DNA of 64,000 bases from Seison nebaliae (Eukaryota), in NCBI GenBank assembly GCA_023231475.1, contig JALJEE010000685.1:1-64000 (forward strand), read 5' to 3'. Each line of letters starts with the position of its first letter. Within the stretch, counting starts at the first letter, position 1. This document shows positions 6,451 to 64,000 of the stretch, in pieces. Position numbers and translations under genes: made by a program. A model generated the notes under the pieces. That model saw nothing but the letters and a program-made list of their open reading frames with translations, was not told the origin of the DNA and made no database searches.

Positions 6451-6521
<71 letters not shown>

Positions 6522-11963: not shown

Positions 11964-14035
11964 TTATGAGAAATTGAGATATGGTCTAAGGAAAACGACT
12001 TAAGTAAATAGATAAAAAATAAACTTCTTTTCCGCTTCTTTTTGTAGATCAGTTTGTGAGAGTAATTTTAGTTTTTGTTCAAGTGAAATATTCTTCAACT
12101 GAACTTCGCTATCGATCGACTGTTGTCGACAAACGGATAGATCGATATGATCGTCGACGAATTTTGTTTGTGAATAATTCTCGGAATTATCTTCGATACT
12201 TCGATTTGTGTCATGAAAATAAAAATTTCTTGTTATATCTTCACTCTCGTTCGAATTACATTGAAAACATTTCGTACAATTATTCATCTTCCAACAACAC
12301 AATGTCGTGTCACAACAAAAAGAACATGGTCCTGTATGATAATATTCACCATCAATATGATAGTCACCGGTAATTGCACTTTTAATATCAGCTGACACAT
12401 GTCGCATTTCAAAACAACATGGCGTCAATGAACATATTGATAATTGATCAGCTCCGACTGAATAATCTGGTTTTTCATCACCCTTCAAATTCTTACCAGC
12501 ACAAATGACATCACCATGAAGAGTCACTGCTTGTCTTTGTACTTCAGCTAAACGTAATCTCTCTTTCTTCTCATAATCAGCATTGATCTCCACAATCTTC
12601 AATACCAGAAGATTATAACTCGATGCGTAAACGGTTAATCCGAATAAGATGAATGTGATTGTAAATGCAACATATCCTGGTTGTTCAGTTAACATATTCG
12701 GTTTTTGTAAAGCAACATAATCACCGAAACCGATGGTTGTAAATGTCATCATTGTATAATAGACGGAGTCGATATATGTCCATTTTTCTTTCCAACTAAA
12801 TACCGCACTACCCAACAGAACCGTCAAAGTGGCTAAGAAACTGTCAGCCAATAAAATTTCATATTCACTCACTTTCAATTCATCACTATTATTTAATATG
12901 ACTTCCTCATCCAATACTTTATTTTGTTTCAATTTATACAAAATTCTCGAAGTCTTTTCAAATTTGACACTTTGTTGTATTTCCACATCATTTGTAAATT
13001 CTTCGATATATTGCTCCTTCAATTTCCTACACACGCAGCAAATTCGTCCCGTCAATTGAATACGTTGTTCAATTAATTTCGATTGTTTCTGACGACCTTT
13101 TTTATCCATTTTCTTCTCATTAATCAAAAAAGATTTTGTTGATATTTCTTTTGTTCGATCCTTCCGATGGATGATGTTTTCCATCTTTTCTTTCTGACAA
13201 TTACTTATCTTTCTATCAGAACAATCCTCGCAATAATTGATTTCAGTTTGGATAATTGATTCAATCGATTTCCTTCTTTCAATATTTTCCGATAAATTCT
13301 CTTTATTCGCATTTTGATCCGTTTCTTCTTCTTCATGAAATATTAATTGAGTATAACGAATGTGACGATAAATCGCACACTTCAATACTTTCTCATTACA
13401 ATATTGACAATATATTCGGCGACGACGAAAAAATACCTTTGCTCTTTTCACTATCCATGTGATTACCATGTTAATTCTTTCTCCAGCACTCTGAAACATG
13501 ATCACGGTCAATGGAATTCCAATAAATGCATAAATCATACACGCTGCTCTTCCTCCTCTTGTCTTCGGCGTACTATGGCCATAACCTTTTTTTGAAGAGA
13601 TTTTTTTTTCAATGGAATTCTTAGATTTTGTCGATATAAGAAAAATTAAACCGATCAATGCCAAAACTACTGTACAGAAATAAAACGACCCAGCGAAATT
13701 CCATTGAAGACCTGCACGAATTTTTAATTTATCCCGAACAACTTGGTCAACTTCGTTCATTTCTAATATGTTTTTCAAAGAATTAATTCAAATTAAATTT
13801 CAAAAAAAAATGAGAGGAATTCATGAATTTATTAATTTCATTCAAAATGTTAACCTTCTTTAGTGAGATTATATTTCTTTCGGATTTGGAGTTTAATTAA
13901 AGAATTTTCATTTCTAATTCTTTCTTCATTCGGTGATTCAAGTGCATCAAATATCGCTGCACCAACTAGCAAATATGTTCCCATGATGACGATCAAAGCA
14001 ACGCATCGTAAATTTTGATGTTTCAGTTTCGTCAT
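11964..14035 (-). CDS. Task7: Two-pore-domain K+ channel, TASK subfamily (invertebrate Task7-like)
   Basis: N-terminus QNLRCVALIVIMGTYLLVGAAIFDALES is TASK M1. Removing the in-frame intron 13586-13651 gives QWNFAGSFYFCTVVLALIGYGHSTP (P1). P2 is YYTMMTFTTIGFGDYVALQ and M4 ends NLLVLK. There are 2-3 introns; the last (to KKPYLNFS*, stop at 11964) is tentative, otherwise the stop is at 12000. Confidence 0.93.
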
Positions 14036-16860
14036 GATTCATATGACCATTCAGTTCAAAATTGAACATGAGATTATAATAAATTTATTGCATAATTTCT
14101 CTCTCTAATATTCTTTTGGGAGAGACATGTATGTTCTTCTTAACTTTTTTATTCATGAACAATTTGACTGGAAAGGCATCAGATACAAGTTAAACATATT
14201 GCACTCTAACTAGGAAGATAAGAAGACGAATAAACATATAATATAACAATTTTTCACGAATAGAAAAATGCGACATAGTTCCATTGAATTTATGCAGACG
14301 AATTCTACAAACCTCATATGTCAGAAATAGAAATAATTAAAGTGGTAATGAATAAATGAAGGAGTGAATGAGAGAATTGTGTATAAGAATGAAAAGAAAG
14401 AATATGCATATTGATAGCTGATATATTGATGAACTGGTGACCAAGGTAACCAATATTTTTTCAGGAAATTAATATAAATTATTTTTCATGGAAATTCTTA
14501 TTTTTATTCCTCTGTTTACATCTGTCTTACTTTAAGTTATGTCGTTAAGAAATGACACTATCTGCACATCAATATAAGAACGATAAACGTACTATACTTT
14601 TTATGGCAACTACCAATATTTTGTCGCATATAATAATACGTATTATCGATGAATAGTGCAAAATTATTTCCAAATTATTGTCTGTAGCTGACTGCTGAGT
14701 CGAGAACGAACGGCGAAGACCAAAAGAAATGAAGACCAATTACTAATAGTCAACATATTTATTTTATTACCATACATATCATCACTATAGAAGATTAATA
14801 AAAATAATATCATTTCATATCATTTTAAGACACATATTTCACCCCCATTTGTCAAGTTTTATTTGAATAACAATCTCCCATCTTATAATTATTTAATCGA
14901 AAATAATCATCATACTTAATATGGCTTCTTCCAATTTATCAGCTGTCATTTATTATAATCAGTAATTATTATAGGCTATGAATATTTTTTAAATATACAA
15001 AAAAAATCTATCTAACTCTATTGATCATTCAAATAGAATATTCCAATCCTCAATTTGGGAATTCATGTTATATTATGCATTGACATTCCGATCATGTCGT
15101 AATGGGAATTGATGATATTAATCGTTCCCAATATTGTGTATCTTTTCCGACTGATATCATCAAATAAATGATAAGATAATGTGACCATCAATGAAAATTT
15201 GGATTGAGAATAAATTAAATTTGTTGACGGATAATATGCACTGTAATTTATTCTGTCGCAATTCATTTCGGTATTAACAGAAAGTCTTCCTTGCGCTAAT
15301 CATTTTATGACTGAAATTTCAATGGAAACACTTTCGAATGAGAATAATTTGAGCTATAAAACAAATGAAAAAAATAAAAATTTCAAACATCGAATACTTA
15401 TCGATGGAGTTTTTCGACATGACTGGAATTTGATTAAATTATTTTATGCTTAACCCAGGAAAACAATCTTCTGATCCTACCAAGATTGTAATGTGCAAGA
15501 CATTTCAGCTTAAAGCAAAATTTAAAGTATTCGTAAATGAAAAGAAACATAAGAAAAAATTTAGTACCCTTCTCCTCACTGCTAACTATATGGACTATAA
15601 TCAATAGAACAATTTCGAAGAAAAGAGGAAGGACCTTCTGAACATTAGGAAGATTGTGAAGGTTAAATTTCTCTCTATAACACACAACTCCTCTTACATC
15701 ATAGTATTATATTCACATTCCATTTTTCATCCATTCTGTAAATGTTGTTGGCGACATGTGAAAAAAAGGAGTAGAATAACAATATGTTCGACATTAATTC
15801 TTTCTTATTCCTTCAACTCCTTTCACATTAGAAAGAATAAAAGATAGTTATATTTAAATATGAATACATTACTATTTATTTCTTCTTCTTTATCCTTCTC
15901 TTCTGCAAGAAGAATATTGTAAGAAAATCTCTTCTTCACCATCATCATTATCTTCACTTATCATTATTTATATTCATCATGAGAATAAGCAAATCCTAAT
16001 TTCAATTATAATATCGAAGAATAAGATTAATAATTTCTCGTACAATTTACGAAGAAAATGAACTAATTAAAATTAATTATTTCCATTCTATTCAATAATC
16101 TCTTCTTCTCAAAATGAAATTGAGAGAAATTAATGAAAAAAAATCTCAACCGAAAAATTGCGTATGTATATACAAAAATCGTAGTAATTGATAAGTGCAT
16201 TTTCTTGCTGTTCTGTAAAAGAATTCTTAATAAAAATTTAATACAATTTGCATCAATTAATTAGACCCAATACTATGACAGCATTAATCAAAACCAAAAT
16301 GTAATGAAACCTTTTTCGTGGAGATTACTACCATCAGTTTGTAAGAAATGATGATACTTGTCGATCGTCGTTCAGGAGATTAACATATGTAAACCGATAT
16401 TCCAATCGATCAATGTTTCTCTAAGTTTTCTTGACTGATAAAAAGCAGACTGGTGATTGATTATCATTCGAAGTTGAAGAAAACAAGTTGCCATATACAT
16501 CTTTGTGATTTTACCGATTCGAAAATTTTCGGAATTTTCTATACCCAATCGAAATTTCTCGAAATTGTTGACTTCATATTTTTTTTATTATTAGCAATTG
16601 ATTGTGGAAATTTTTTCAAGAAGAACTGAAGAATCGATTCTAGTGATAAAACGAACGAATTCACGTTGAATTGTTTGCCGACATTGTTTGATCACTTGAT
16701 CAATTGAGTGAATTCAGTGACGGAAAGCGGTTCTATTTAAGCGGTCAATTTTAATAGAGCAAGGAACAAATTGGAAGAAATCATTCAAAATTAACTTCTA
16801 GTGATTCCAATCAATTTATTGGAGAAGTAGAATATCTGGAACTATTCTCACTATATAAAC

Positions 16861-20600: not shown

Positions 20601-20746
20601 ATATTCACGTTTCTTTTTTCCGACACATACCAAATTTCACACAAAATATAGAGATTGTATTAGCTTCATTCTCTCACGATGATACTTTCATTTATTTCCA
20701 CCATTCTTTCAAGAACGACATGTTTAGTGAGAAGTGAGCGACAATT

Positions 20747-23700
20747 ATGAAACGCGTATCATTCTACTTGTTTGGTTAAGTTTTTCTTTTAAACTCAAAT
20801 ACAGAAACAAGGTAATTCCCCTTCTTAACTAGCCATTCAATTGTGTCACGTAGTGGTATTAGGAAGTTCTTTTTCTCTCATTTTACTTCTTTCCTTTATT
20901 CTACATAACAATTCCAGTTTCAACCAAGTTGCAAACGACAGTCGAAATTTGTTTCGACGTCGAACAACGCTATGAACAATTTAAAGTTGAGTTGAGAGGA
21001 GAACATGAATCACGAATCAGATTTTACCAATACAAAGATTGGTATTTCTGTGATTGGGACATAGGTACAGTCCATTGGCCAAGATCAGATTGTATATCTG
21101 GATGTGCCCTAGTTTATTTTCGATTTAAGGACAATTGATAAATTTTCAACTTCTTATTATTATTAGGTGACTCTTGTATCTTCCTGCAATTGGGGTCCAA
21201 CCAAATATCATCAGAACTATGTTTCTGAATTTTACATCCAAAACTTTCTTAACAAAGAAACTTCTCCGGTCTCTCAAGCTACGGTGAGGAAGGTTAACAT
21301 AATATTATAAAAATTCATAATATTAACAGGAAAAATAACATCATTAAAATGAACATGACAAATTATCGATGAGATGTTTCTGATAACATTCTCTGATGAA
21401 TAATAAGATGGAAAATTTTATAATCTGAAGTACTGAATTTCAGATGAGAATTTATGAGCCGAATTTAAGAAAATTGATTAGTTGCAACGGTTGGAACTCC
21501 ACAATCATAGAAGATCATTGGACTGTATGTTATGAAGCTGAAACATATTCTGAAGATATTCCACTTCGCATACCACACTTTCCAAGTTCATTCTCATATT
21601 AGAGGTGAATAATAAGTAAAATTTAACATAAAAGGTTGTGAGTCATCTAAACCTCCTTATGTACCCCCGAAACCGAAAACCACACCGAAACCTGTAACCA
21701 TAATACCTGCCGAATTAACCGAATTGCCAGATCTACAGATAATTGATGAAGACGAAGAGCCTGAAGAAGAAAAACAGAGCATCCAAGACAAGACGAGAGT
21801 TGGTGAAATTTCGGAGAAAACAAACAGAACAGCCGAAGATGTAATTTTAGACGTTGGTGAAGAAATATCAAAAATAGATGAGGAATTGGACGAAGAAGAA
21901 GAGGTGAAAGAAACACTTGTTGAAATTATCAATGATGATAATGATGAGGATGATATTGAAGACCTCTCGTTACAAGGTTATCCATATAAACTTTAAGTAA
22001 AAATGTTTATTTATTTAATCTTCCATAAACGATGAAACAGAAGAAAAAATATTGAAAAACACCACAATCTTGTATTGTTATCAAAATGCGAAATTAGACA
22101 CCATATGGAGAAAACGACCATTCTTATGGACAACGGTACAATTCATGGACCGCGATCATACATGTCCGAGAAAAGAGAAAGCTTATATCTATGGTCTCGA
22201 TATACAATGTGAACAAGGATGTGCTATCATTCAAGTGAACATTAATAAATAATAATAATAAATTATTTATTTACATTCATATAGGTGGAATCGTCTTGTA
22301 ATTTCGAACCGGGAAATTCCATTTATGAAGTTTATGTCAGACGATTATTTCCCGATTGGTATAAGAAAGTTGAAATAACGAAAGTTTTCATTTGAACCAA
22401 TTTAAAAAGTAATTTTTATAAAACAGTTTCATATTTATGAACCGGGAATAGAAAATGTTTTTGATTGTCTTGATCCCAATATAAAACGAGTATATGTTCC
22501 AGGCTCAAATCGAATACGGTGTTTCCCAACACCAGGTCGAATACCTAATAAGCATGATTCCTTTGCCAGATTATATACTCCATGTTACTTCAAATTTTAA
22601 ATAGTTTGATCCTATATCGATAATATTGTTATTCTTTAAAAAAAAAGATTGTAAGATAATGGGTCAACCACAAAACGAAATGCAAATACCTTCAATTCCG
22701 GAATTAGCGGATGTTTATGGAAACAATTTTATGATGAGTTCTGCATTTATTTGTTAAAGAAATTTAAAATAAGTATTAAATTAATAGATGATCGTCATGT
22801 AAGAATTTTGAAATCAAAGAAAAAATTGTCAAAGAAGAATGTTCCCATGATTAAATATGATGAGAGTTAGCTCAAAACTTTTAAACTTTTTTCTTTAGAT
22901 ACCTTTGAAAAATTTTAGTTAAAGAAGCGAAGATCATTATTTGGTATCATGCATCGAAATATATTGAGAAAGCGAGAGATATTCGATATTACCCAAAAGC
23001 TCCCGTTACTGTTCGATTAGCCCAAAGAGGACATTGGAATTCATGTACATATTCGATTGGTGAAATTTCGTGGCCAAGAAACGCACATTGTGAAGTCGGA
23101 TTCATCCTCATCAAATTTATTCCGATGTGTCGGTTTGGGAAAAATGAATCAGATCCGAATGTCTTGACGAAAATGGAAGATGTTTATATTAGTAATCTGA
23201 TAGATCCTGAACAAAATGATGTGATTGCAATGAATATCACCGAAGTTTCTCTAATATTTTTTAAATTGTTTTCTTATTTTAATTTTGTATCAGTTATTAG
23301 TAATTAACCCTAATATGGGAATTACTGGTATCAGATATTCGGAAGTTCCAATTGATAAACCTGGAAAACATTGGATACAATTACAAAAAGAAAGAAAATA
23401 CGAAAATGAAATTATGACACCTGATCGTGCAAGTTAAATCATTATTATTTGAATTTTCAAAAAATATTTTTTAATTGAAAAGTTTGTAAGGAATTGAAAA
23501 TTTATAAAGAATACGTTGTCGATATTGAAAATATTGGGAAGAAGTATCCGGTAGCCGTTCCAGTGATTAATCTAGTTCATTATCTCGCGAGTAAAAGTGC
23601 GAAGGAGAATATGTTTGTTAATTCAGAGAAAAACTTACAAATTGCTCATCAATATTTGGAGAATAAGAAGAATCGTGAAATTACTGAAGGTTCTACAATT

Positions 23701-24372
23701 TGTTTGAAATTGTTTCATATGTTTTTCAGTTCTCGTACCAAATACTGGTTCTCGTGTGAAGTTCTGCTATACCAACGGTGTTATCGACGAAAGTAAATTT
23801 ATTCCTCAATTAACTTATACGGTTAAAGCAAGGTTGCATCAAAGTGGTCGATGGAAAGATTGTATCGTAAATAATCATGCAAAAATTTATGGTTTACATG
23901 AAAGATGTCTTCGAGGATGTGCAATTATGCAAGTTCACATTCCACATTTGTTCTATTATACATATCTATATTTGTTACAGATGGAATCATTTTGTAATTA
24001 TGATCGAATTGATGATATTGACGAAGTTTGGTTACGACCCTTATTTCCAGAATGGTATAAAGAAGTCATACTTCGTTCAGTTTACAATTTGCTTTATGTT
24101 TTTAAAAATTGATCGATTTGTAGATAACTCTGTATGATTCGAATATTAATATCATTTATAGTTGCAAAGCAGAACGTGCGACACATTACAAGGGAAAGAC
24201 AAAACAATCAATTTTGAAGGAAGTTTGGTTGAAATGTAGTAGGAAGAAATATCAATATAATACGTCGGAAAGAATAACAAATAAAGAAAAGATTCCATGT
24301 TATTTTTAAAGTGGTAAAATATGATAATTAAACAATATATTTATAGATTGTGAAACTGTTGCAGACTTATAA
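20747..24372 (+). CDS. Secreted protein with four copies of an unrecognised ~150-aa Cys-containing domain; 18 exons
   Basis: Seventeen GT..AG introns join into one open frame from MKRVSFYLFAIQLCHVVVLG (signal peptide) to ..YCETVADL*. Repeated motifs: GCALVTLVSSC, GCAIIQVESSC, GFILIKFIPMC, GCAIMQMESFC. Also RRLFPDWYKKV vs RPLFPEWYKEV and IGTVHWPR vs IGEISWPR. Confidence 0.8.
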
Positions 24373-26816: not shown

Positions 26817-27315
26817 ATGATGTTATATTTATGGGTGATCGTTATGACTTGTCATGGAATATTGATGGGAAAAAAGGTGCCTATTGACTGCAATAAGTAT
26901 TGTGAAGGAGGAAAAATCACGAAAAATCACGAAAAATATCGTCCACCGTCTTCAAATGGTTGTGGTCCAAAAGGAATTCAGTTTGTGGACGATCTTCTTA
27001 AAAGAAAAAAATTGGGAGATTTGACTTTATGTTGTGATGACCATGATAAATGTTATGGATCATGTAACGAAAATAGCTCAAAAAAGTTGATTTTTCGTGA
27101 TATTAATTTCTGATAAATTCTTCTCCAGGACATGTGATGAACAATTCAATCGATGTATGAATAACACTTGTAACCGATATTCAAGATTTCGATCATGGGT
27201 CTGTCATATCTACAGATTCGGTTTACATAAGGTAGTGGAGAAGTTTGGATGTCCATTTTTCAAAAAAGCCAAAGATCGTTGTTCATGTATTATAGGTAGA
27301 TTATCACCATATTAA
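26817..27315 (+). CDS. PLA2G12: Secreted phospholipase A2, group XII-like
   Basis: Signal peptide, Ca-loop-like NGCGP and catalytic CCDDHDKCY. One 43-nt GTTGAT..CAG intron joins NSSKK to TCDEQFNRCM. FGCPFF..C near the C-terminus. Confidence 0.88.
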
Positions 27316-28572: not shown

Positions 28573-31462
28573 ATGTCTCATGACGTCAAACTAACTCAGA
28601 TTGGATTTGACATCGTGGACTATCCAAACAATGTTCTAAACTCAACATTCCCGTTGGTGAATGTTGATTCACGCATTCTCTCAATGAATGACACAACACC
28701 GGAAGAATATCGAAATATTTGTACAAAATATCGTGCGAATCTCAAATATCGTGCATTGATCTACACAGGCTATGAAGGAATTCCTGAAAATCTGATAATC
28801 AACTTAATTGCTTTTTTTGTTAATAAACTTTTATTTCAAGTGACATATACGATTAAATTGTTCAATTCAGATAATTTTATGTTTATTCACTTTATTGAGG
28901 AGAATCGGCGATCATGGACGATTAGCATTATTACCAGAACAAAAGTTAAGAATATTTGAGAAAAAAAAAATTATAAAATTTCAAAATATTTTCAGATGGC
29001 AGACAATTTTCCGAGATCCGACCGCACATGAAGAAATCATTTCAACGAATGATGAAGGTGATCAGATGAATGACGATGTAGAACATGATATGAATAGGAA
29101 TAACAAAGTGAGAGTAAAAGTAAGAAGAGCAGAAACTAAAAGACATGCCAGTCCAACAGATAGTCTTCCAACAAAATATGTTCCATTTAAGAATCATTCG
29201 CTACCAAATGCTCCAACGGAAATCTTATCGAAAGATGAATCACTTTTGGATTGGGTAAAGAATTTCTTCAAGATGGATCAAACAAACTTCAAATCAAAAA
29301 TTGGACCAGATGCTGAAATTTATTTACGATTCCAAAAATATCTTATCGTTTATATGTGGACCATTTGCACATTATCCATCAGTATTATATTACCCTTAAA
29401 TTATTTAGCACCAAATTCCACATTATCGAAAGACGAAACGTTCGCCAAATCGACAATATCGAATATGGATCCCAAAAGTAATTTGTTGTGGGTTCATGTT
29501 GTTATGTCATTTCTCTATTTGGTTTTAGCTGTAATATTTATGGATCGTTTTACTAATCGAACAAATTATGCAGAAGATGATACAGTAACAAGAACATTGA
29601 TGATATATCATATTCCTTTGGAAGTGTGTCAAAATGAAATAATCGCTGAATATTTCTTGAAACAATTTAATGTTCGAGTACAATCAATCGATTTCGCTAG
29701 AAATGTTTCTCTCATTTTCAAATATCAAAGACTACTAGATCGTGCGAGAGGAGCTTTAAATCGTTGCGAATCAGAATTGAGAGAACATAATCATACACCC
29801 ACAATCATTCCACATCGTTGCGGTACTTTCTGCAATTGTTGTTGTCCTTGTTGTCCGTGTTGGGAACGAGAGAATGCCATCGAATTCTATGGAAAGAAAG
29901 TTCAAAAGTTTAAGAATAAATTAGAGAATACTAGATCGAAAATTGAATTATTGGGAATTGCTTTCGTCACTCTCCCCACAATGGAGAATGTTTATGAGAT
30001 TTTGAAGGAATTACATCGACCATTTCATTGTTTCTCATATTGTATGGGCGGAGGTCGTCATCATACGATTAGGAGACCGTTGGAAAATGGAGAGGCCAAT
30101 ATTGAGAATAGAAACAACCATTCACAAGTAACAGAAAATACTATGATATCAGAAGATGGGATGATTATTAATGAGATTAATGGAACAAAATTGAAAACGA
30201 CTCAATGGATCGTTGATTATGCTCCATCGCCCAAAAACATCAAATGGGAGAACTTGTCCAATGCATATTATAGTTGGTGGATAAGATTTATTTTGTTAAA
30301 TATTGGAATCTTCCTAATCATGATCTTCCTTACCACACCATCTATTATTATTGTATCGATAAGAATTCCTAAATTCAACGAATCTCTAACGACCAATTCA
30401 TCGAATTATATGCAATCTAAAGTTCTCACTTTCATCCAAGAGTTCTCACCAGTAATCATCTTAAGAATTTGTGCTGCCACTTTACCCGTAATCGTATCTC
30501 AATCAGCGTTAATTGAATATCATTGGACAAAATCGGCAGAGAACGTTTGGCTTATGAGAAGAACATTTACATTTCTATTATTTATGATATTGATATGTCC
30601 TTCACTTGGTCTAGCTAGTCTTCTTGGTCTATTCAGTTCGACGGATCCATGGAAATGTATCTTCCTTCCAGATAATGGTGCATTCTTTGTCAATTATGTC
30701 ATCTTTTCCGCGTTCATTGGAACGGCTGTCGAATTATGTCGCTTACCTGCATTATTCTTATATGTTTGTCGATTGGCATGGACAAGGAGTTTCGCTGAAC
30801 AATATTCGGTGAAGAAAGCGGTAACTTATGAATATCAATTCGGTTTAGAATATGCTTGGACATTAGCAATTTCTGGAATTGTATTGACATATTCCATCAT
30901 CTGTCCTATTATCACTCCATTTGGGGCCGTTTACATATCATTCAAATATTTGGTTGATCGATATAATTTATATTATGCATTCAGCACATCAAGTGTAGAT
31001 AAACAATTCCATCGAACTGCTGTCAATTTTTTCCTATTGCTCACTATCATTGTTCAGATCATTCTCTTCTTCTTCACTTATATTCGATCAAGTTCTATTC
31101 ACTTCACTTATCAAAATAAACTTCTTCTTCTAATATTAGGTGTGGATGATGCTGATGGAAAGATGATTGCTTTAGCATTGATGGTCACTATTTCGTTCGG
31201 TGTTTGGATTGGTCGCGTCGTTTTCGGATTCTTTAAAGATATCCACATTTTTGGATTTAAAGTTTTTTTTCTCTTTCTCTTCTATCGAATTATCATTTCA
31301 TTCATTTAGATCCTTCGAGAAGATCATACAACTACTGATCCTCCCGATGAATATTTAGATGTTATTCCAATTATTTTCCATTCTATCACTTAATATCTTT
31401 CTTCACAGGATTATGCACAACAGCGTTATAGTATCAATGATATTCTTACTGATCAAAGCTGA
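28573..31462 (+). CDS. TMEM63: TMEM63/OSCA (CSC1-like) mechanosensitive channel
   Basis: Motifs GYEGIPENL, GPDAEIYLRFQKY, FAKSTISN, APSPKNIKWENL, CIFLPDNGAFFVNYVI, YEYQFGLEYAW and KYLVDRYNLYY. Five GTT..AG introns. Confidence 0.95.
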
Positions 31463-31756: not shown

Positions 31757-32749
31757 ATGGCTCTTTTAGAATTTTTTGGTTGTTTGTTAACCATTTGGAC
31801 ATTTCCCGTCATGTTCTTCATTCTAATAATTGCAAAAGATTCGGTGAATGTTGTAATGATGATGACAGCATGCTTCTTCTTCGCTCTATCTCAATTGTTC
31901 TCTTCATTGATAAGTAAAGCAATCGTACCGTTACAACATGTCATTCCTTTCAACATATTTGTATCAGTTCTATTTCAAGAGATATTTCGTCTTATTCTTT
32001 ATGTTATTCTTCGACGAGCCGAATTAGGTTTTCTTTTTATTTCCACTTCATATGTGCTGTTAATAAAGTATTTGGAAAAGGTGTATCAAAATTAAGACAA
32101 AATGGATTTTTACTCGACATCAAAATTAACGCTAGGAGAAATTCTGTTAATTGTGGAATGGGATTCGGAATAATGTCAGCAATTTTATTGTCGACGAACA
32201 TGTTATCTGCAATTACAGGACCGGGAACATTCGGTATAAAAGATTTCAAACAATCATCTGTTGGTAAAGACCCAAAAGACACAGGATTAAACAACGACTT
32301 TTTCTCCCTACAACAATCAATTCAAAGTTTATTGATCATCATTCTCAATATTCTGTGGACGATGATTGCATGGAATTCCATACAAACTAAACATGCTACT
32401 TACAGTAATCGATCTAATTTCATCATTCAAAAAATGTCGGGAGTTATCATTGCTTTCTTGTCTCATTTATTCGTATCTTATTCTGTTAGTTCTTCCATCT
32501 TCTCTCTAGTCCAATCATCTTCATGATTTCTAGACATTATTTCATCAATATGACAGAAGCATTTATATTTCTTCAGGTGTCATCTTCTCAATATTCTTAT
32601 TCAATATCATCGGCATGCTCATCATCTCTTACATTTATATTAAACGCTCCATCCAATCTACAACAAACGCTCAAATTAATTTGAATGTGAATAATATTCA
32701 TGGGAATGATAATATATCCGTTTCAGTAAATAATGAATTGATCACATAA
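31757..32749 (+). CDS. APH1: Gamma-secretase subunit APH-1
   Basis: Motifs MALLEFFGC, SVLFQEIFR..RRAE, GMGFGIMSA (GxxxG), GPGTFGI and SHLFVS. Two introns (GTTTTC..AAG, GTTAGT..TAG). Confidence 0.92.
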
Positions 32750-35442: not shown

Positions 35443-36354
35443 ATGAATAATTTGGTTGACATTTTTTTCTCGATAAGAAAAATATATTTATTGAAATTTT
35501 TTTTAGTTTATTTTCAGTTTCTTCTGTTTAGCTATTACTCTACAATTAGCTCAATGTAATTCCCTATCATTCTCTAACATTAACAAAGATGGTGTTACAT
35601 TAAAGAAAGATCCTAATATAGATCTGTGTCCAACATGTTTGAATTTCATGGACGAAAGTCTCAACACTTTATTAAACATTATTTTAAGTTAGTCATAAAA
35701 TATATAAAACTTTAATTACGTATATAATTATTATAGATTCCGGTGTTATTGGCAGCTGCAGTGCCTTATGTGGTGAATTAGCACAAGTGACACATAGTCC
35801 ATTATTGGGAACTGTATGCAGTGTAATTTGTGATGTAGTAGGTCTCGATTTATTCATTCACGCTATTGAAAAGTTTCAGTTTTTTTTTCAACTTTTATTA
35901 GTTTCACTTAAATAGGGCTGATCTCGATCCAATTTATTATTGTGAAATAATCGACATTTGCCCAGTCTTCGATCAAGGTGATGCTGAAATTATTTCATTC
36001 AATGCTTTCCCAAAACAAGCAACCCAAGGAGCTGTCTTCAATTTAAATCTAGCCTTCCGAACGATTAATGGAACTGGAACTGGACAAATTGATGTTGGAA
36101 TAAAAACTGTTGATCACGAACCAGTTGGTGCAAGTTTCTTAAGCGAAATGTTGAAACCTGGAGTTTATGGCCAAAAGATTCAAGTAAGCACAGATCCAAG
36201 TGGTTGTGATCCAAGTCAAGGTCCTTGTGAACAATGGCTTCCTGGAAACTATACTGCTAAGATTGCAATCTGCAATGGCGAATGTGGTAGTCGTCATCCA
36301 CATTCAAAGATTTATGCTGAACAAGAATGCACTTTCACCATCACCGGTACTTAA
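35443..36354 (+). CDS. Countin-like secreted saposin-B protein
   Basis: Spliced across three GTT introns: MNNLFIFSFFCLAITLQLAQC..DLCPTCLNFMDESLNTLLNIILNSGVIGSCSALC..CSVICDVVGLDLFIHAIEKADLDPIYYCEIIDIC..NGTGTG..ICNGECGSRHPHS. This is the pattern of the countin family. Confidence 0.88.
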
Positions 36355-36634: not shown

Positions 36635-37183
36635 TTATATGGTTACTCTTACCATGGGACAGTAATATTTACTTCCATGTGATCTACAACCAAGATGAAG
36701 ACATCCAAGATTACAGAAGAATCTGCTGCTTTTAAGTCTTCTACATTCTGCCCGTTTTTGGTAACCAAAACCCCAAACGTGAATGGTGCCCCAATCACAT
36801 ACGTAATTGCTTGAACAATGTGTTTTCGCACAAGGATCTTCTTCTGTCGTAGTTGTTGTTGTCGTAGTAGTAGTAGTAGTTGTTGTCGTAGTAGTAGTAG
36901 TAGTTGTGGTTGTGGTTGTGGTTGTTGTAGATGTGGTGGTGGAAATCTCATACATTTGAAGTGCCTTATCATAATCTAAATCAAAAGACAAAATTTAAAT
37001 GTTGCATTATCTTAATTCATTCAAACCATCACAGATTGGACAACATCCTCCAGGTTCTAAATATTCGTAACCCGCGCATAACATCGGTTCACAATGATCC
37101 ACATCGCAATTATCTTGCATCGTACTACCGTTTGCAGTCACCACCAAAACGGTGAGGAAAATAGACAGAAATAAACTTTTCAT
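36635..37183 (-). CDS. Small secreted protein: VWC-like Cys motif, poly-Thr linker, Cys-rich C-terminus
   Basis: Exon 1 is MKSLFLSIFLTVLVVTANG..CDVDHCEPMLCAGYEYLEPGGCCPICD. One GTTTGA..TAG intron leads into ORF 36635-36991. Confidence 0.8.
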
Positions 37184-43000: not shown

Positions 43001-43489
43001 ACTTCCAGTCGAAATTTACAGTCACCGAGAAACATTTTCACAATAATTAAATGTCATCATAATAAGAATGAATTTAATCCAACTCGTTTATTAAATGGAA
43101 AATTGACAAACGAATCGATCTGTAGAAAAGACAATTTTTTTGATTTACCAAATATGTTGAATGAAAATTTAACATCGAGAAGAAAAATATTTACGGGTAA
43201 TTCATTTTGGATTTTGCCGTTGTCAATAGGCTTATTTATTTTTATTACTTTTGCTCTATTCTTTTATGCGTCGGCAATTGTGAAAGAGACTGAAAAGAAA
43301 AGACCACCATCGAGTTATGATCGAACGGTAGTCGCTGAACAATGTCAATTAATTTTGAATGATGAGAATAAATCTGAAAAATTAGCATGTTGCTATCCCT
43401 CTCGTTCAGTGACAGAAACATGTAATAATCTAAATCAACCAATTGTCGCTGTTCAATTCATTGGGGAATTTGAAGTAGTAAATGAATAA
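40012..43489 (+). CDS. Divergent protocadherin-like type I membrane protein
   Basis: Signal peptide; cadherin motifs SVSEDEKIGT, LNREELCG..C, ITDANDNRPQF, AHDAD, INDVDEY, IDCE and VNDINDHFP; TM FWILPLSIGLFIFITFALFFY. One GTTAGT..TAG intron joins ORFs 40012-41472 and 41483-43489. Confidence 0.85.
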
Positions 43490-48003: not shown

Positions 48004-48868
48004 ATGATCGGAAAAGCTATCATAATTCTAAGATTATTTGAGAAATTATTTTTACTTAGTAAATGTTTCGAATTATCTAAAAATAATGGAAGTACTCGTT
48101 ATCCTAATGAAATAACTGAATTAATAGAAGAACAATTCCAGTTTAATTGGACAAATACAGACGAGTTCTGTATAAAGAATATAAATTTCCAAGTTTAAAT
48201 TCTTTCTTATTATTTGAAAAGTTTAAAGAAAATTTATCAGAATAAAACGGATAACATTAGTTTAGAGGATTATGAAATAGAGCATATTAATGTAACACGA
48301 ATGATATTTAATGAATCATTGAACTGTTCAAATATTTATTTTTTGAAGCAGAAAGTTCATTGAAATAATGATTGTACTTAAATCTATTTTTAGAAAAGTA
48401 CTATACTTCAAAATTTCATCAATGAAGAGTTTCTTTTGTCCCAAACTGCAACTTCCACAAATTTACCAGGAACCACGAAATTATTTTTCTTTTTTAATAA
48501 TGATCTCCAACCAAGAAAAGTTAATAAGAAAAAGGAAAAAGAGAACAGTAGTTTTATGTCAGGTCACCTAAAAATAGTACTGATCGTAGGTACCATTATT
48601 GGTACCATATTTCTTTTTTGTTGTGGTTGTCGCTTAGTACTTCTTCGGGTACAAAAGTTCTTGCACAATTTCTATACATTAAGACTTATCTTATTTTTTC
48701 AGAAAATTAGAAACAGAACGATTCTTGAAAGGAAATGTTCTTCATGAGTTAGAGGTTCATTCTGAAGAATACAGCGAATCGTCAAACGAATATAAGGATT
48801 GGAATATAGTGCTGAATGAACCTGCTCAAGAATATGTTTATCATTATTCATATACATATGACGCGTGA
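48004..48868 (+). CDS. Lineage-specific single-pass membrane glycoprotein, paralogue A
   Basis: Three GTT..AG introns give an open frame: NWTNTDEFCIKNIN, LEDYEIEHINVTR, TM IVLIVGTIIGTIFLFCCGC, C-terminus YVYHYSYTYDA*. Confidence 0.8.
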
Positions 48869-49244: not shown

Positions 49245-50239
49245 ATGATCAAATTCTTTATTATCAGTCTAAGGATATTATTAAAACTATTGGTAACGTG
49301 TGACTGTCATGAATTATTGGAATCTAATGGAACCACTCCATTCATTAACCAGATATCAACCGAAATTATAAAAGAAATTACGTCGGAGGTTATAGTTCAA
49401 CACATTCCGGAAGTCACTCAAATGGTAGTTGAACATTTCTCTTCTAATTGGACAGATAGCGATGAATTTTGTATAAATCATATAAATCTGGAAGTTAAAT
49501 TTTTTAAGAATAAATCATTATACCATTATTTTAACAGGAAAAAATTGAGAATATCACGTTAGATGATTATGAAATTAAGAATATAAATGTGACACGAGTA
49601 ACATCAAATGATACATTGGATTGTATTAATGTCTATTTCTTTAAAGGGAAAGTTAATTCGAAGAATTTTTATTCCATAAATTCAGTATTAGAATATTTCA
49701 AAATCTCATTCGACCAGAGAAGAAGATCTTTTTGATGCATATCTTACGACAACAGAACTGGATATAACATCAACCAGTTTTCACTTTCATAGTTCATAAT
49801 ATAAGAAGGAAATATTTTCAGTTCAAAAGAATACTACAACGAAAAATAATAGCTTCATAGCAACTCATTTTAAAACGATAATGATCGTCACTGGAATATT
49901 AGGAATCTTACTTATCATTATTTGTGTCAGTAGAACAATGATTGATCGGGAATCATCGATTAATAGATTTCAAGAGTTCAAGAAAGAATAAGTAAATAAT
50001 TATTAATTTTTCTTTTTAGAAAATTTGAAAAAGAAAGTTTTCTAAGCAAAGTAAAAGAGAATGAAGCATTGGCGAGATCGAATGGATTAAACATCAGAGA
50101 ACTACGTTCACGCAATGATTTTAATGGTTGGAACGAAGCAGTAACGAAAGAAATGCCAATTCAAAAAGATACTCACCCGCCACCGAATGATCTACCGAGT
50201 GCTTATGATTATAATTATTCGTATACGTACGACTTATAA
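49245..50239 (+). CDS. Lineage-specific single-pass membrane glycoprotein, paralogue B
   Basis: Four GTT..AG introns: NWTDSDEFCINHIN, LDDYEIKNINVTR, TM IMIVTGILGILLIIICV, C-terminus YDYNYSYTYDL*. Intron positions are shared with paralogue A. Confidence 0.8.
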
Positions 50240-50675: not shown

Positions 50676-53600
50676 TCATAATAAATCTTGTTTTCCTTCT
50701 TCCTCGAAGATGGCCCAAGAGTCATTCAGCTGCATAAAAATACCTCTAGCTAACTCTTCATGTTCACTTCCAATCATCTAAAAATGAAAATGAAATTTTA
50801 ATGAAATAATAAATAAAATAAATTAATAACTTTGTCAGGATGTACTGATAAAACGGCTTTCCTGTAAAATTTTTTCACTTGTTGAACTGTAATCAGATCG
50901 CCCATAGTGATAGGTTTCCATCTTTGTTCTCCATCCCACAACACTTCATGTAAGGAGCAAAGTAGAGCTCTAATATTTTTCTCTTTTTCTTGAGACCAAT
51001 TCATTATTTTAATATCATTCTCTGACATTCCCCGTGATTGATTCTCCAATTTTTTGTCATTTAATGTTTTCGGTTTCTCCTCATTCTTCTTATTTCTGTT
51101 GTCTAACGAAAAATCCCATTGATTGAAGTTATCAAAAAAGTTATTGGATGTATCTTCCTTCTGTTTTTCAGTTTTCTTCATTTGAGGTCTCGATTGTGAT
51201 GGTGGTGGTGGTATTGGTGGTGATGGTTGTGCCGTTGGGATGGTCTTTCTTTTTTCGGAAATATTCGTAGTTGGTATTTCATTTACCGATTTCGTAAAAT
51301 CAGGAAAGAAATTAAGAAGATCATCATTAGGTGGTGACGTCTTCGTCGGTGCTGTGTTTTGGGGTTTAGTTAAGTTGTTTGGAATATCAAATGTCAAAGT
51401 ATCAAAATCGACATTAGAATTATATTTTTTTTGCTCTGGTTGAGAATCGGTTACAAAACTAAAGATGTCATTCATATCTTGTTCACTCGAATTTTTCAAT
51501 GTAATTGCTGAATTTCTATCATTGTTTTGTAATGAATCATTTAATTCTAATAATCTCTCTTCATCTTCATTCGTTTTACATTCTGATTTTGGTTGAAACG
51601 ATTCTTCTTCATCTCTCGAACTGCCCAAATTCAATAAGGAACTTTCAGCAGATAATTCCTTTTCTTTCATTCCGTTTGATGGTTGTGTACCGTTAACATA
51701 TAAATGAGAGAAATCGCCAATGAAATTATTTTGGATATTTCTAATATCTTAAAAGGACAATTTAAATAAGAAAATTTATTAAAATAAAATGAAACTTGAA
51801 TTTATATCATTTGTTTGTAGTTTCATTGCTTGTACCCATTTCTTACTGTTGTCAGGACTCAATGTGACAAATGATTGTTGATTTTGATTCAAATCGAAAA
51901 GAAGTGTAAATTCTTTAATTTGTTGAGGTGGCACTCGACAAATATCTAAGTCTTTCCTATAACCGGAATATGAATTTGATAATAATGAATGAAGATATTA
52001 ACGCTAAAATTGAATATTCAACAACTCGATCCATTTTCAAAGGAAGAAAAGCAGTATAGAAACGAATTCGACATATTTCCATCGGAATCAATCGACCGAA
52101 TTGCATCCGAGCATGATTAATAGCAACAGTAATATTTCCATAAAGACGAACATTATTTACAAATCTTATTATGATTTCATTATCATCATTATAATTAAAT
52201 TGTGTGACTGATGCAATCGAATTATCAATCTCTTCAAAATCTTGTGAAATAACAGCATACGGTTTACATCCCGTTTGTAATTTATTCATCAAAGGAATTC
52301 CACCAATTCTTATTTGTCTTAAATGAAGAACACCGAGTGCCACACCTGATGTATCGGTTGGCAATCGAATTAATTGATTTGATGAGAATTGAGGCGACTT
52401 TAATTTGAATAAATAATCGACAAATCTAAAAATGGAAAATGAAAGAGAGAAAAAAGAGGAAGCGAACCTTCTAATTAAGGTATTGAAACTGATTGGGAAT
52501 GTTAATTTGGAATTTCTTTTCCTCAATTCAATTAAATGATTCATAAGAATCTCGACAGAATAAAATTGTTGTGTAAAGACTAGAATTCCGGCAGAGATCA
52601 AATTAACAATGCAATCTGTAATCAGCGAATAAATGCCTGCACTGGTTAGAATGATGGTGGAATTGTTATTTTTCAATTGATATCGTGTCAAATTCATGAC
52701 GATTTTTAAGAATTTGGAAAAATCGGGAATGTCGTCCGATTCGTTTAAAAGATATGTTTGAAATTTAATTGAATTATTTATACAATTCTCATCGATGGAA
52801 ATACAAGAATGATTCGTATAAATATTTGCCACAAATAATTTTTCACAATCCACTATTTTCATTAATTCATTCAATTCTTCTTTACATTGACGTTCCAACA
52901 TATCTTTCTGCATATGTGTTGTGTTCGTTTGATAATTAATGATTGATTGTGTCTTATCCAATTTCATTTGGTAATCGGGAGCAGAATTAAAAAGAATGAA
53001 TGATTGTAAATTAAATAAATTATCATTGATCTTATATAATGAAGTGGTGACATGGGAATCTCTCACTGGTGCATTATGACCAGATGAATTGAATGATGCT
53101 CCCGATGTATCCATTACATTCTTTAAATTTTCAGTAATTGTTGAAGTGAATTTGTTGGCTAAATTAAATAAATTGAATTGTTGGGAATTGTTGTTATCAT
53201 CAAAATTATTTTCAGAATGATGAATCTGTTGTTGTTGTTGTTGATGTTGATGTGGAGGAGGTGGAGGTGGAGAAGATTGTCGATTATTATGTGAAAATAA
53301 TGAATCAGATGATGGATTATTATTTGATGGTAATGGATAATCGACATCAGTGGAATTATAATTATCGATTGGTATCTTCCTCAAATAATTCTCTATTGAA
53401 TCGATCGTTTGACCAGGCTGTAAATGAACAATCTCTTTGATATGATTCGTTTGTAAAATGTTCATTATATCGAAAATTGATGGTCGATCATTCGGATTAT
53501 TATTCAATAACTTTCTAATTAATAATGATAAATATTTATCACAGTTACTTGGTAATTGATAATTACCATTAATGATAGCTAATCGCGAACTATCCGGAAA

Positions 53601-54413
53601 TGGATGTTCACCAATTGTCAAATTGAATAAGATACATCCTAGACACCATACGTCCAATTTCGGACCAATTGAATAATTCAAATAAAGGTCGACTAATTCA
53701 GGTGGTCGATACATGGGCGTCGTTCTCTCATTCAATTCATCTTCCACCATATCTCGTTCACTCGCTGTCCATTCTTCATTGACGTCATAAGTTTTCGTTG
53801 AACATGAACCGAAATCACATAATTTTACTATGGCCGATTTGGAAATGAGAATATTCTGAATCTTTAAATCATAATGAACGATCTTCAATTGATGTAATAC
53901 TGAAACGGCTGAAGATATTTGGAAGAATATCTTCAAAGTATCTACCACCGTCAATTGGAGATTTGAGAGATGTTGATCGATCGATCCAAATGGAAGATAT
54001 TCCATCGCTATAAAATATTCCATTCGAAAGTTATGATCATCCTTCATGAGAGAATTTCCGATAAATTGAACAATATGATGCGATTTCCCCATAATTAATT
54101 TCATGACGTTTATTTCATTTTCAATTTCCGATTTCTTCCTCTTATCATTCAACGGAGTTAACATCCGTTTAATGGCGACATCTTTCTGTGATTGGAGTTC
54201 GGTGGCAATGAAAATAATTGAGAATCCACCTTCAGCAAATCCTTCATTCAATCGATATTTTACATGACTGATATCGATCACTCTTCCAATTTCGCTTTGG
54301 CCGATCACATTAGATATTGGTGAAGTGACATTGGTAGAAAGATTTGATGTTGGAATGGTATTTTGTATTCCAAAATTGTTGACGGCTGATTTTAGATTGT
54401 TGAGGAAATTCAT
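50676..54413 (-). CDS. GAK: Cyclin G-associated kinase / auxilin (NAK kinase, degenerate PTEN-like, C2, J domain)
   Basis: Kinase motifs [26 protein letters not shown] and [10 protein letters not shown]2 [15 protein letters not shown]; auxilin J-domain [39 protein letters not shown]. Four GTT introns. Confidence 0.95.
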
Positions 54414-55336: not shown

Positions 55337-56162
55337 TTACGTTTTAAATAAAGCGAAAGCATCTTTGCCCATTGAACCGCGAACAGCAGCCCAAGTAAAT
55401 ATGGAGGCACCAATGACAAATAGAATGCCAATAGTAATTGTAATTCCGATGAGGAATCTCATTCGGAAAAGTTTTTTCTAAAACAATTCATAATTGTGAA
55501 TGTGTTGAAATAAAAGTAACTGTCGATTCTCGCTCAAGTATTCGTTGATATGTTGACTTGTTAATTCGTTCACCTCTCGCATTAGTAAATCGCAAATCGA
55601 AATTATCGCTGGTCTTATTCAGAGGAATATCTTTGAAGTTCTTTGTGGCTTGATTTTCTTTCTGAATTTGTTGCGCTACTGTTTTCATTTTGTTTTTCGA
55701 TACTTGCTCCATTTCTTTTTCTCTCTTCAATTTCGCTTTATTAGCCGAATTAACTAGTCGTTCATTTGGATATGGTTTGGGTGTTCTCACAATTGGCTTG
55801 GGCGTTGTCGATGTTGTCTTTACTGGTTCAACATAAGTTTCTTTCGAATCATCTACGACTATTTCACTTGGTAATTTATCTCTTTCTCGAGAAGCACTCA
55901 ATTGAATATCTCGTATGGTTAAAGTTGAGGGTGACGGTGAAATCATGTTTATCGGATCATTGTAAGATCGTAAAGCTACATCCGGTGTCCGTTTAGGTGT
56001 AACAGGCATCGATTTTTTCTTTAGTTGTTCGATAATTTTTTTCGTTTTTCTCGATGACGTTATCTGTGGTGTTTGGCACGTTTCAACTAAGGAATATTCC
56101 AACGGATTTGGAGCGTTCTCATCGTAACGGTAAGCAACATTGTTAGTCTTTTGAATCGACAT
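55337..56162 (-). CDS. Hypothetical tail-anchored membrane protein
   Basis: ORF 55488-56162 plus a GTTACT..TAG intron into a final exon KKLFRMRFLIGITITIGILFVIGASIFTWAAVRGSMGKDAFALFKT* (single C-terminal TM). Confidence 0.75.
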
Positions 56163-56471: not shown

Positions 56472-57523
56472 TCAAATTGATTCGTTTTCGTTCAAAGTAT
56501 CATATTTGCTTATTCCTGCTGGTGCGAAATCTGGAGTCATCGCCACAATGCCTAAGACTACTATGTTAACGGAAAAAATGGTTCCTATCACTAATGCTGG
56601 AACGAAATCTCGGTATATTATTGTATTACGAAATTTTACCCAACAGCCAATTATTGGTAGGCTTTTTCTGAAACATAACCTCTTATTAGGAACGTCATAA
56701 AGGTCAAGGTCGGAAAATGGAGTATCCCATTCCACATTACTCTAATTATTGATTGAAATCCAATAAATTAAATGTTAAAAAAAAATTAACAAATTTTTCG
56801 TAACAACAAGAAAACGGATACTCTTGTTCAATATATTGTCGACCCCATTCAGTTTTAAACTTTGACCAATCGTCACTTGATTGCCATCCACAACATCGAT
56901 ACTAGAATTCCTAAATGAAACTTAAAATGTACTATGAAATGAAACTTTGTATTGCACGCGATGCATTCGCTCGAGATATGGTTTGTCTTTTGTTCTACTA
57001 TTCATTGTTTGTGTCCTTTTCATCCAATAGTTCACTATTAAATTCTCCACAGCGAAATATAAATTCTGATGAATTCGAGGAACTGAAAAGTACATTACCA
57101 TTAACAATAAAGATTGTCCTAAGATATAAATTGCCGCCTTCAATTATCGTTATGGTTCGAATATTAAAGTAGAAATAAATAAGAACTTTAAAAAATTTAC
57201 GTTGTTTCAATTTTCTACCAATAAACCACATGATGAAAGCCAACATCAAGGAATAACTAAGAATAAGACAAAGATGGATGTGTAATGAAGGTACATTATC
57301 TAATCGTTTATAATCGATGTCGATAAGGTCTAATACTCGTTTGGTTGGAGAAAAGACGAATACGTAAGAATGATAAAGGAAGACTAGTATAGAAAGCACC
57401 TTAACAATTCATTATTTTGTTGAGATAATTTTCAGATTTTCTTATAAAAACTCTAACAGATAGCCCAAAATATAACCAAGCACCTGCGTTTACTATCAAC
57501 CTCCCTTTCTTATTCAGCATCAT
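56472..57523 (-). CDS. Divergent tetraspanin
   Basis: Four GTT introns join four hydrophobic helices. The EC2 loop carries QYKYRCCGW..DW, YPFSCC and IGC before TM4. Confidence 0.85.
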
Positions 57524-58050: not shown

Positions 58051-58128
58051 CTTTAAACTATAGTTGGTGGGAAATATTAAGGACTAAAATTAAATTTGTT
58101 ATATGACGAACAAAATGATAATGTTACG

Positions 58129-58550: not shown

Positions 58551-59019
58551 TCACTTGCCAAAATGTCCGGAAGGAACGAATCTTTTACGTCCGAAATGTC
58601 CGTTTGGTATAAATCTTTTCCCAAAGTGGCCATTAGGCATGAATCGTTTGCCGAAGTGACCATTAGGCATGAATCTCTTACCAAAATGACCGTTAGGCAT
58701 AAATCGTTTACTCTCGATTATTTTGTCGATAATTGAATTATTCAATCTTTCCTTCAAACTTTCAATGTCTTTCAACAAATTATCGACTAATAGAAAATTG
58801 ATTTAATATGTAAAAATAATAGTTAAACTAACCATCATCCATTTCATCGTCGTCATTATTATCTCCAACGGCCGGTTCCAATGAGTTCAATAAATTCCCT
58901 TCTATATTATTGTTATTATCTTCAGTGGCACTACCAGAAATTAATGAATTACAATTGATAGAGGGAAGAATTATTGCTAAGAAACATATTGTTAATTTTG
59001 AATAGAAATGAAATTTCAT
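58551..59019 (-). CDS. Neuropeptide precursor: FMPNGHFamide x3, FIPNGHFamide, FVPSGHFamide
   Basis: Signal peptide MKFHFYSKLTICFLAIILPSINC, acidic spacer and one GTTAGT..TAG intron. Then five repeats bounded by basic cleavage sites, each ending in a Gly amidation donor. Confidence 0.93.
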
Positions 59020-62778: not shown

Positions 62779-64000
62779 ATGTTAAGATGTCGATTCTTTA
62801 CGTTGATATCGAACAATATTCGTTCGACAATTAGTCAACTTTCGAGCATCGGTAATAGTGGAAGGAGATTAAAGAATATTACGGGAGATAAACCAATAAA
62901 TTTACAGTTGAGTGATTTACCTTCATTTCCATCATTCATCTTGTTAAACAAACGTGATACGCTTAACTTATCAGGAAATGTCCATTGCTCCTTAATTGGT
63001 TACGAAACGGAGAGAATTGACGAATGCTTACACAAATTCCATTTATCCTCTAGACATATTTGGCAAATTGGGAAACGATTAACATCCAATATCGTCATGA
63101 TTCATTCAGCTGCATTAGGTTCCCATTTGTCTATTTGACGAAATTAATTTATTCTTTCTTCATTTATTTATTCTCCTTCTTTTTGATTCATATGAAAAAC
63201 AGGAATTAATGTTTGTCTCTATGATTCGAAATGTTCTACGAATTACGTCACGAAACTCATTTATCCATCCATCCAACATTTAAATATCAGAAATGGAAGA
63301 AATCATTTCAACAATTATCTGGATCATTTAGCTTTCTGTTCGATTAATCAATCAGATGCTATTGAAGCTATCGAACGATTGACGAATATGGAAGACGGAG
63401 GTACAACGATCATCAACGAGAAGATTATATATAATAAACATGATGAAAAAGAAATGAGACTTATCTCTTTTATACCCAAATCTTCTAATTCTTCACTCAA
63501 ATATGTTGTGACGATTCCATTCAACAAATTTAATCAGATCGGACGATTTATCCATTTGAATAATGGGAATGGACTACAACATATCGCTCTTTATTCATCA
63601 GCAATTATCGAACAAATTAAAGAGTTGAGGAAGGATAATCAAATTAAGTTCAGGAAAATTCCATCGGCCTATTACGAGAATTTAAGTGAATTAAATAAAG
63701 TTCGTTTTTTTCTTTCTAATTCGAATTAAACCATTTCACACTATTTTCTAAGGAGAATGAATTTATTTCCAGCAACGTCTCCGATTTCCAACACAACAAT
63801 ATTCTCATCGATTCAAATGATAATCAGTTATTAACTATTATTACTATTACTATTGTTACTTCAATCCTTCTTCAACATTTTCTTTTTTAGTCATTTAATG
63901 CAAATTTTTACTGAGAGCATTGGCCAAGGTAATGATGATTCGTTATTTCTCGAATTTATTCAAAGATCAAAAACTGCCAAAGGATTTGGAGAAGCTAATA
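62779..64000 (+). CDS. HPDL: 4-hydroxyphenylpyruvate dioxygenase-like protein (partial, runs off window)
   Basis: Iron-ligand motifs YLDHLAF, GNGLQHIAL and LFLEFIQR..KGFGEAN, plus PSAYYE, ILIDS and LMQIFT. Arg/Ser-rich, acid-free N-terminus resembles a mitochondrial presequence. Three GTT introns. Confidence 0.85.

Follow-up and report, generated by a model that had tools for sequence, protein, structure and literature searches.

To our knowledge, animal introns almost universally carry a purine at position +3. Outside animals, matched changes of the 5′ splice site (donor) and of the U1 small nuclear RNA (snRNA) that reads it have been described. In Entamoeba, donors are GUUUGU(U) and the U1 snRNA has co-evolved to ACAAAC, with 96.9-98.5% of donors being GUUUGN, while Mastigamoeba balamuthi combines GUGCGC donors with a U1 carrying ACGUAC, according to the available text of one report (10.1101/2022.06.08.495308). 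The present work concerns the donors in a stretch of 64,000 nucleotides of Seison nebaliae (GenBank assembly GCA_023231475.1, contig JALJEE010000685.1, positions 1 to 64,000; G+C 30%), referred to as the window, where predicted introns begin with GTT almost without exception. This seisonid rotifer is a tiny animal of rotifer kinship that lives on marine crustaceans. Its genome and RNA data are publicly deposited and two lineages of it are described, as stated in the accessible part of PMC8351084. Three exons of the window match the deposited S. nebaliae proteins SNEBB_009685, SNEBB_009687 and SNEBB_009692 at 100%; these proteins are gene-model predictions made by others.

The curated set comprises 60 introns in 17 genes (24 from deposited proteins and 36 newly modelled), and no model contains an internal stop. 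GTT opens 58 of these introns, and the other two begin with GTG (22235) and GTA (8096, minus strand). Median intron length is 49.5 nucleotides (nt). GT...AG ends are found in all 60 introns, whose predicted removal restores the reading frame, as is characteristic of the major U2 type. Only GT donors were modelled, while exact mapping of the deposited proteins also permitted GC and AT starts and needed none. This mapping yielded 24 introns, 23 with GTT, one with GTG (22235) and none with GTA. The binomial probability of 23 GTT out of 24 is 1.4e-7 at P(T)=0.45 and 1.2e-5 at 0.55, the background share of GTT being 42% of GTN in the window and 42/77 among GTs internal to introns. A sequence-only reading of positions 11964-64000 had claimed 54 GTT donors and one GTG; independent rebuilding of the same span gave 53 GTT and one GTG among 54 introns, the GTG near 22235 reappearing in the exact mapping of SNEBB_009685. 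The possible GTA that the same reading had placed near 8096, outside that span, was also rebuilt; it is frame-forced within 45 nt and is the only GTA counted. The GTT donor pattern is thus confirmed for this window.

Position +3 is T in 58 of the 60 donors, C in none and a purine in two, against 46% T in intron bodies, so that this position is positively constrained and not relaxed. The usual animal GTRAGT donor is hardly represented, with a purine at +3 in 2/60 and neither G at −1 nor G at +5 in 38/60. On the exon side, A occupies −2 in 36 cases, and −1 holds 37 A and 15 G (21.7 and 10.5 expected from coding sequence), which makes 52 purines at −1. Position +4 is A in 25, C in 15, T in 17 and G in 3 donors, T being depleted (27.8 expected, p=0.003) and C enriched (6.9 expected). 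G at +5 is found in 11/60 (4.5 expected, p=0.005), a purine at +5 in 36 (25.4 expected, p=0.004) and the pair +5G+6T in 7 (2.1 expected), with +6 otherwise at background. The tail AGT at +4..+6 occurs five times against 0.72 expected (p=8e-4), in exactly the five genes in which the sequence-only reading had noted GTTAGT (RPS20 38142, APH-1 32485, countin-like 35688, cadherin-like 41425 and neuropeptide 58832), whereas TGT is absent. That reading was right about the shift at +3 and incomplete, as it overlooked the altered −1 and +5. Acceptors are TAG in 31, CAG in 18 and AAG in 11 introns, with a weak T tract, and are followed by a purine at +1 in 46/60. No branch-point motif was enriched over shuffles in the 60 introns. 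The Seison donor signal reads A(A/G)-GTT (the hyphen marks the cut), followed in the normal register by faint traces of AGT. The U12-type donor motif is RTATCCTT, and minor introns were rejected, as no donor of this type occurs among the 60 hexamers. One protein of the minor spliceosome is ZMAT5. Seison and both acanthocephalans are listed as lacking it, and the 22 other rotifers all have it, according to the consulted portion of the PMC12256650 supplement.

The introns counted lie in the following genes.

6330..8890, minus strand: unnamed gene, own model, six introns with donors 8776, 8584, 8463, 8320 and 7867 (GTT) and 8096 (GTA)
12000..14035, minus strand: TASK-like two-pore K+ channel (Pfam Ion_trans_2), donors 13854 and 13651, GTT
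20747..24372, plus strand: SNEBB_009685, 17 introns, 16 with GTT and one with GTG at 22235; deposited protein P0012 mapped exactly
26820..27315, plus strand: Group XII PLA2-like gene (Pfam PLA2G12 below the cut-off, E=1e-6), donor 27086, GTT, frame-forced
28573..31462, plus strand: TMEM63/CSC1 (SNEBB_009687), donors 28819, 28945, 31092, 31262 and 31361, all GTT; P0001 mapped exactly
31757..32749, plus strand: APH-1 (Pfam Aph-1 2-96, then 97-192), donors 32028 (GTT) and 32485 (GTTAGT)
35443..36354, plus strand: countin-like gene (label of the sequence-only reading, without a Pfam match), donors 35455, 35688 and 35873, GTT
36635..37192, minus strand: gene of a Cys/Thr-rich secreted protein, donor 37026, GTT, not forced
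37986..38454, plus strand: RPS20 (SNEBB_009692, deposited P0013), donors 37989 (GTTGGT) and 38142 (GTTAGT)
40012..43489, plus strand: cadherin-like gene (label of the same origin, not confirmed by Pfam), donor 41425, GTTAGT
48004..48868, plus strand: membrane protein paralogue A, donors 48193, 48355 and 48657, GTT
49245..50239, plus strand: membrane protein paralogue B, donors 49494, 49652, 49777 and 49976, GTT
50676..54413, minus strand: GAK/auxilin-like gene (Pfam DnaJ at the HPD junction), donors 52467, 52002, 51795 and 50830, GTT
55337..56162, minus strand: gene of a single-pass protein, donor 55520, GTT
56472..57523, minus strand: tetraspanin (Pfam Tetraspanin, E=2e-5), donors 57457, 57186, 56945 and 56790, GTT
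58551..59019, minus strand: neuropeptide-precursor-like gene, donor 58832, GTTAGT
62779..64000, plus strand: HPPD/HPDL-like gene (label likewise from the earlier reading, without a Pfam match), donors 63119, 63700 and 63827, GTT

The counts exclude 1-5700 (repeat-like), 9983-11721, 14600-19700, 59500-62400 (models unstable) and, of the gene at 6330-9514, the portion lying upstream. This gene, a large multi-exon one on the minus strand with a Thr-rich tail, has a frame break upstream. Its large exon gave no HMMER match among 50% representatives (1.84 billion), and Pfam found nothing useful on 6330..8890; this GTA-bearing gene may be unannotated or broken. Another possible GTA donor lies at 15397 (minus strand) in a gene-like stretch, 15000-15560. 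The minus strand of 59500-62400 carries gene-like fragments interrupted by many stops.

Several junctions are fixed by protein sequence. The second junction of the TASK-like channel rebuilds the pore motif IGYG, split between IG and YG, and the Ion_trans_2 positions 22-36 and 41-77 flank it. The RPS20 model is colinear with RPS20 of fly, amphioxus, mussel and nematode, and the deposited P0013 matches only via GTT 37989 and not via the in-frame GTA 37998 nine bases downstream. In APH-1, the in-frame GTA alternative at 32473 would lose four residues. The junctions of paralogue A correspond by eye to those of paralogue B. Distant TMEM63 homologues, aligned by a neutral spliced procedure, were mostly uninformative: one intron was exact (28819-28870, recovered with a bivalve homologue), one had the right donor and a wrong acceptor, and three were spurious in divergent loops. 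Independent DNA contigs (runs X1 and X3) differ from the window at no position over 20001-25209 and at one over 25748-35997, so the GTT donors there are not assembly errors. Four DNA sequencing runs aligned to 20001-37700 showed no intron-like joints, as is proper to DNA.

The GTT excess might be an artefact of model building, of self-trained annotation or of AT mutation bias, since GTT is the commonest GTN (42-55%) and the deposited models are themselves predictions. The sequence-only reading had itself cautioned that manual modelling may favour GTT. Four lines of evidence speak against this, the deposited proteins being one. Another comes from frame-forced donors, which no GT of another type could replace without closing the frame and which cannot be read through: 33/35 of them are GTT with the same acceptor and 29/31 with any acceptor within 30 nt (p from 7e-10 to 3e-5 across backgrounds of 0.45-0.60). 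In the worst case, with each feasible non-GTT alternative accepted, 33-37 of the 60 donors are still GTT and at most 16-21 are GTR. An ab initio model neutral at +3, which over-predicts introns in weak regions, gave 61/84 GTT in non-shadow genes vs 34/76 in opposite-strand shadow genes; its first version gave 51/77 overall. Two of its non-GTT picks, RPS20 37998 and 24065, were overturned by deposited proteins, and colinearity or paralogy, judged by eye, goes against APH-1 32473, 49631 and tetraspanin 56957. Finally, the forward likelihood over all parses of 14 held-out, non-deposited gene regions has its optimum at P(T at +3)=0.90-0.95, exceeding the neutral model by 15 nats, a bdelloid-like model by 40 and GTR by 82 (relative to the neutral model, bdelloid-like −25 and GTR −67). 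The antisense control showed no gain from T at +3.

Comparison with related taxa, which the sequence-only reading had proposed, was made with bdelloid-like loci. The Adineta vaga TMEM63 protein used as query retrieved 24 metagenome loci. Spliced alignment without any preference at +3 was applied to 14 of these, and ten (L007, L008, L015-L017, L020-L024) were left out. The aligned loci are 76-87% identical to the Adineta protein and are therefore regarded as bdelloid-like. Their introns are equally short (median about 50 nt), nearly as AT-rich and have GT-AG ends. The 123 distinct donors, being orthologous introns of one gene and not independent draws, comprise 93 GTA, 22 GTT, 5 GTC and 3 GTG; by intron position, +3 is mostly A at 17/23. 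One locus taken by itself, with T at +3 in 4/21, is already distinct from 22 deposited introns of Seison (p=2e-7). The frequencies of +3A, −1G and +5G are 0.76, 0.55 and 0.53 in the bdelloid-like set vs 0.02, 0.25 and 0.18 in Seison, where −1G is down to about half and +5G to about a third of the bdelloid-like level. In the bdelloid-like loci, whose U1 is presumed to be standard, each of the 22 GTT donors, found at six intron positions, has −1G or +5G, as would be expected of a +3U mismatch in need of compensation, while 36 of the 58 Seison GTT donors (16/23 deposited) lack both (Fisher p=9e-8, the orthologous donors not being independent). Uncompensated GTT donors make +3U in Seison look like a match and not a tolerated mismatch. 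The bdelloid-like GTT donors (L006, L019, L002, L013, L018) recur in different species at a small set of shared intron positions, nearly always with both −1G and +5G. An Rfam scan of seven of these loci found nothing. These data support the shifted donor code proposed by the sequence-only reading and show that short, AT-rich introns alone do not produce it. Beyond the lines given above, the same neutral logic yields GTA in AT-rich bdelloid-like introns, and an artefact is very improbable.

As regards the reader of this donor, it seems on balance somewhat probable that U at +3 is a positive match for a U1 snRNA with A in place of U at nucleotide 6; a changed U1 was also the simplest mechanism named by the sequence-only reading. 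According to the accessible part of PMC11732430, U1 nucleotide 6 is opposite +3; once hand-over has taken place, +3 lies opposite U6 G44 in a weak contact and +4 opposite N6-methyladenosine 43 (m6A43), while the exon end is bound by U5 loop 1. The absence of GTC from the 60 donors favours A over G as the reading base, since A at nucleotide 6 reads only U and G would accept C. Together with the AGT tail in the normal register and the Entamoeba precedent, this would make A6 the best single fit. Pairing energies were computed in a fixed register against intronic decoys. Standard U1 reaches −1.1 kcal/mol on Seison donors, no better than the decoys (p=0.15), the A6 variant −2.3 kcal/mol (p=2e-6), and A6+U9 −3.3 kcal/mol with a stable helix for every donor, while bdelloid-like donors reach −4.4 kcal/mol with standard U1. 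Rfam (gathering threshold or E≤1) found neither U1 nor U6 in the window, its only hit being a transfer RNA (tRNA). This tRNA (47140-47228, minus strand) has an insert in the anticodon loop and was missed by ARAGORN as run here.

Under the A6 proposal, the GTT pattern would extend from this one 64-kb window to the whole genome. Introns of about 50 nt with weak acceptors and no detectable branch motif would have left recognition to a five-base core at the cut, read by U1 with A6 and possibly also by U9 pairing with A or G at −1. At +4..+6, the contact with U6 ACAGA would be weaker, which would agree with METTL16 having possibly been lost, and pairing of U5 loop 1 with the exon A's may take a larger share of the hand-over. 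In the BUSCO sheet consulted from the PMC12256650 supplement, Seison is the only one of 25 syndermatans for which METTL16 is marked 'Missing' (24 have it), and SPF45 and LSm2 are missing only in Seison. METTL16 loss weakens U6-class donors in favour of the U5 class (PMC11732430, PMC10581693) and favours +4U (PMC10581693), as far as the available text of these sources goes. The full version, a whole-genome A(A/G)-GTT code in an intron-rich animal, with U1 re-paired at nucleotide 6 and perhaps 9, U6 m6A methylation lost and tens of thousands of introns changed since the split from bdelloids, is tentative and somewhat less probable than its negation.

A number of points weigh against the A6 proposal. 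The energy gain of A6 is circular, as this base was chosen to fit +3U, A6+U9 was fitted post hoc, and a G6 variant gives an equally good score (−2.5 kcal/mol). G at −1, found in just 15/60, is unexplained by C9, and a single change at U1 nucleotide 6 does not explain the reduced −1G and +5G. Most lineages with atypical donors retain a standard U1 (69 Saccharomycotina, Giardia, Trichomonas, Thecamonas, Micromonas), with shifts at +4, in the consulted portion of 10.1101/2022.06.08.495308, and U1 pairing energy is a poor predictor of splice-site use in the human assays described in PMC11732430. With METTL16 loss the exon-side A's agree and the depleted +4T does not; the +4U donor type expected of such loss was accordingly rejected (17 T at +4 vs 27.8). 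The Seison genome lacks about 35% of metazoan BUSCOs according to the available text of PMC8351084, which makes the absence of METTL16 alone weak evidence. All Seison counts come from one 64-kb window and predicted introns.

Three other readings keep a standard U1. It could be that +3U is selected at the U5/U6 hand-over, through a wobble with U6 G44 once the m6A43 contact and the +4..+6 helix are weakened, or through a changed U6 ACAGAGA box. The contact of +3 with G44, commitment at the U1-to-U6 hand-over (PMC11732430) and the listed absence of METTL16 would suit this, as would the better pairing of Entamoeba GUUUGU with U6 as well (10.1101/2022.06.08.495308); A at −2 and purines at −1 and acceptor +1 suit U5 loop 1. 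However, a G reader ought to accept +3C, which is not seen, the U6-type tail TGT is absent and +4T is depleted, and SNRNP27K and PRP8 are listed as complete (same BUSCO sheet), so that this route is considered unlikely. A protein could likewise be the reader, with a diverged U1-C, Luc7 or TIA1/Nam8-type U-binding factor confining weakly paired standard U1 to GUU. Pairing is weak under any U1, hence protein support is required regardless, and U1-C is strongly diverged in Entamoeba (10.1101/2022.06.08.495308, available text). Since a U-binding factor would prefer a U-run and +4T is depleted, this is judged improbable.

Standard U1 might also pair in a register shifted by +1, with A7 reading U+3, C9 reading G+1 and U10 reading A or G at −1. 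This accounts for +3U and for A over G at −1 with no change of snRNA, agrees with the purine excess at +5, and its shifted pair count lies above the decoys. Yet the +6G it predicts is not enriched (4 vs 4.5 expected; +6G+7T 2 vs 2.1), mean energy is just −0.24 kcal/mol and below zero for 18% of donors, the tail stands in the normal register, and −2 is A and not C or U; such pairing is a slim prospect, slightly slimmer than a protein reader. The A6 change in U1 is retained as the preferred explanation.

Other features of the window concern the genes and the lineage. Low-depth contigs (2-5x vs 14-30x), about 90% alike, cover 22039-22388, 23369-23437 and 23978-24084 of SNEBB_009685; they represent either the second species lineage or paralogues, and would supply orthologous donors. 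RPS20 (37986-38454) shares no more than about 60% identity with any of the other homologues listed, and histone H2B (57691-58050) appears divergent, which suggests, as far as these sequences go, a fast-evolving lineage. The neuropeptide-like precursor (58551-59019, minus strand) has a signal-like N-terminus and five GHF-G-K/KR repeats, with predicted amidated peptides ending in GHF. A high-copy repeat of short tandem units, with depth up to 10x that of its flanks, occupies 24950-25800.

Full-text literature searches, with thin coverage of subscription journals and of the 2024 annotation paper in Hydrobiologia (10.1007/s10750-023-05268-6), returned no report of an animal with GTT donors or of Seison donor sites. 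The consulted portions of PMC8351084, PMC10125929 (on lamin) and PMC12256650 do not describe them. A genome-wide +3U switch in an intron-rich animal, if true, would mean that most donors and their reader must change together, and published models tie such switches to intron-poor genomes, according to the available text of 10.1101/2022.06.08.495308. Seison would then offer a clean natural test of U1 versus the U5/U6 hand-over as the setter of the donor consensus. In practice, aligners and gene finders favouring GTR donors would misplace junctions in this lineage.

Among the known systems, bdelloid rotifers have standard major-spliceosome introns, and Seison shares with them GT-AG ends, the median of about 50 nt and AT-richness but not +3A. 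The GUAUGU lineages, with a standard U1 and +4U tied to loss of METTL16 or SNRNP27K (PMC10581693 and PMC11732430, available text), resemble Seison in a one-position shift and in the listed absence of METTL16. They have shifted +4 to U and keep +5G strong, whereas in Seison +3 has become U, +4T is depleted, +5G has collapsed and SNRNP27K is listed as complete. Mastigamoeba shares with Seison the one-site donor change in an intron-rich genome, but its change is at +4, in an amoebozoan, and the matching U1 change is that of Mastigamoeba. Entamoeba has the same near-universal +3U. Its genome is intron-poor, with a strict donor of six to seven bases changed at +3 and +4 and a clear branch motif, while Seison is an intron-rich animal whose donors are fixed at +3 alone and hardly constrained at +4..+6, with A predominating at −1 and no branch motif found; the strict GUUUGU hexamer, tried as a candidate, occurs in 0/60. 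The Seison donor is thus known in kind from Entamoeba, and what is new is its occurrence in an intron-rich animal with only +3 fixed and both the tail and −1G relaxed.

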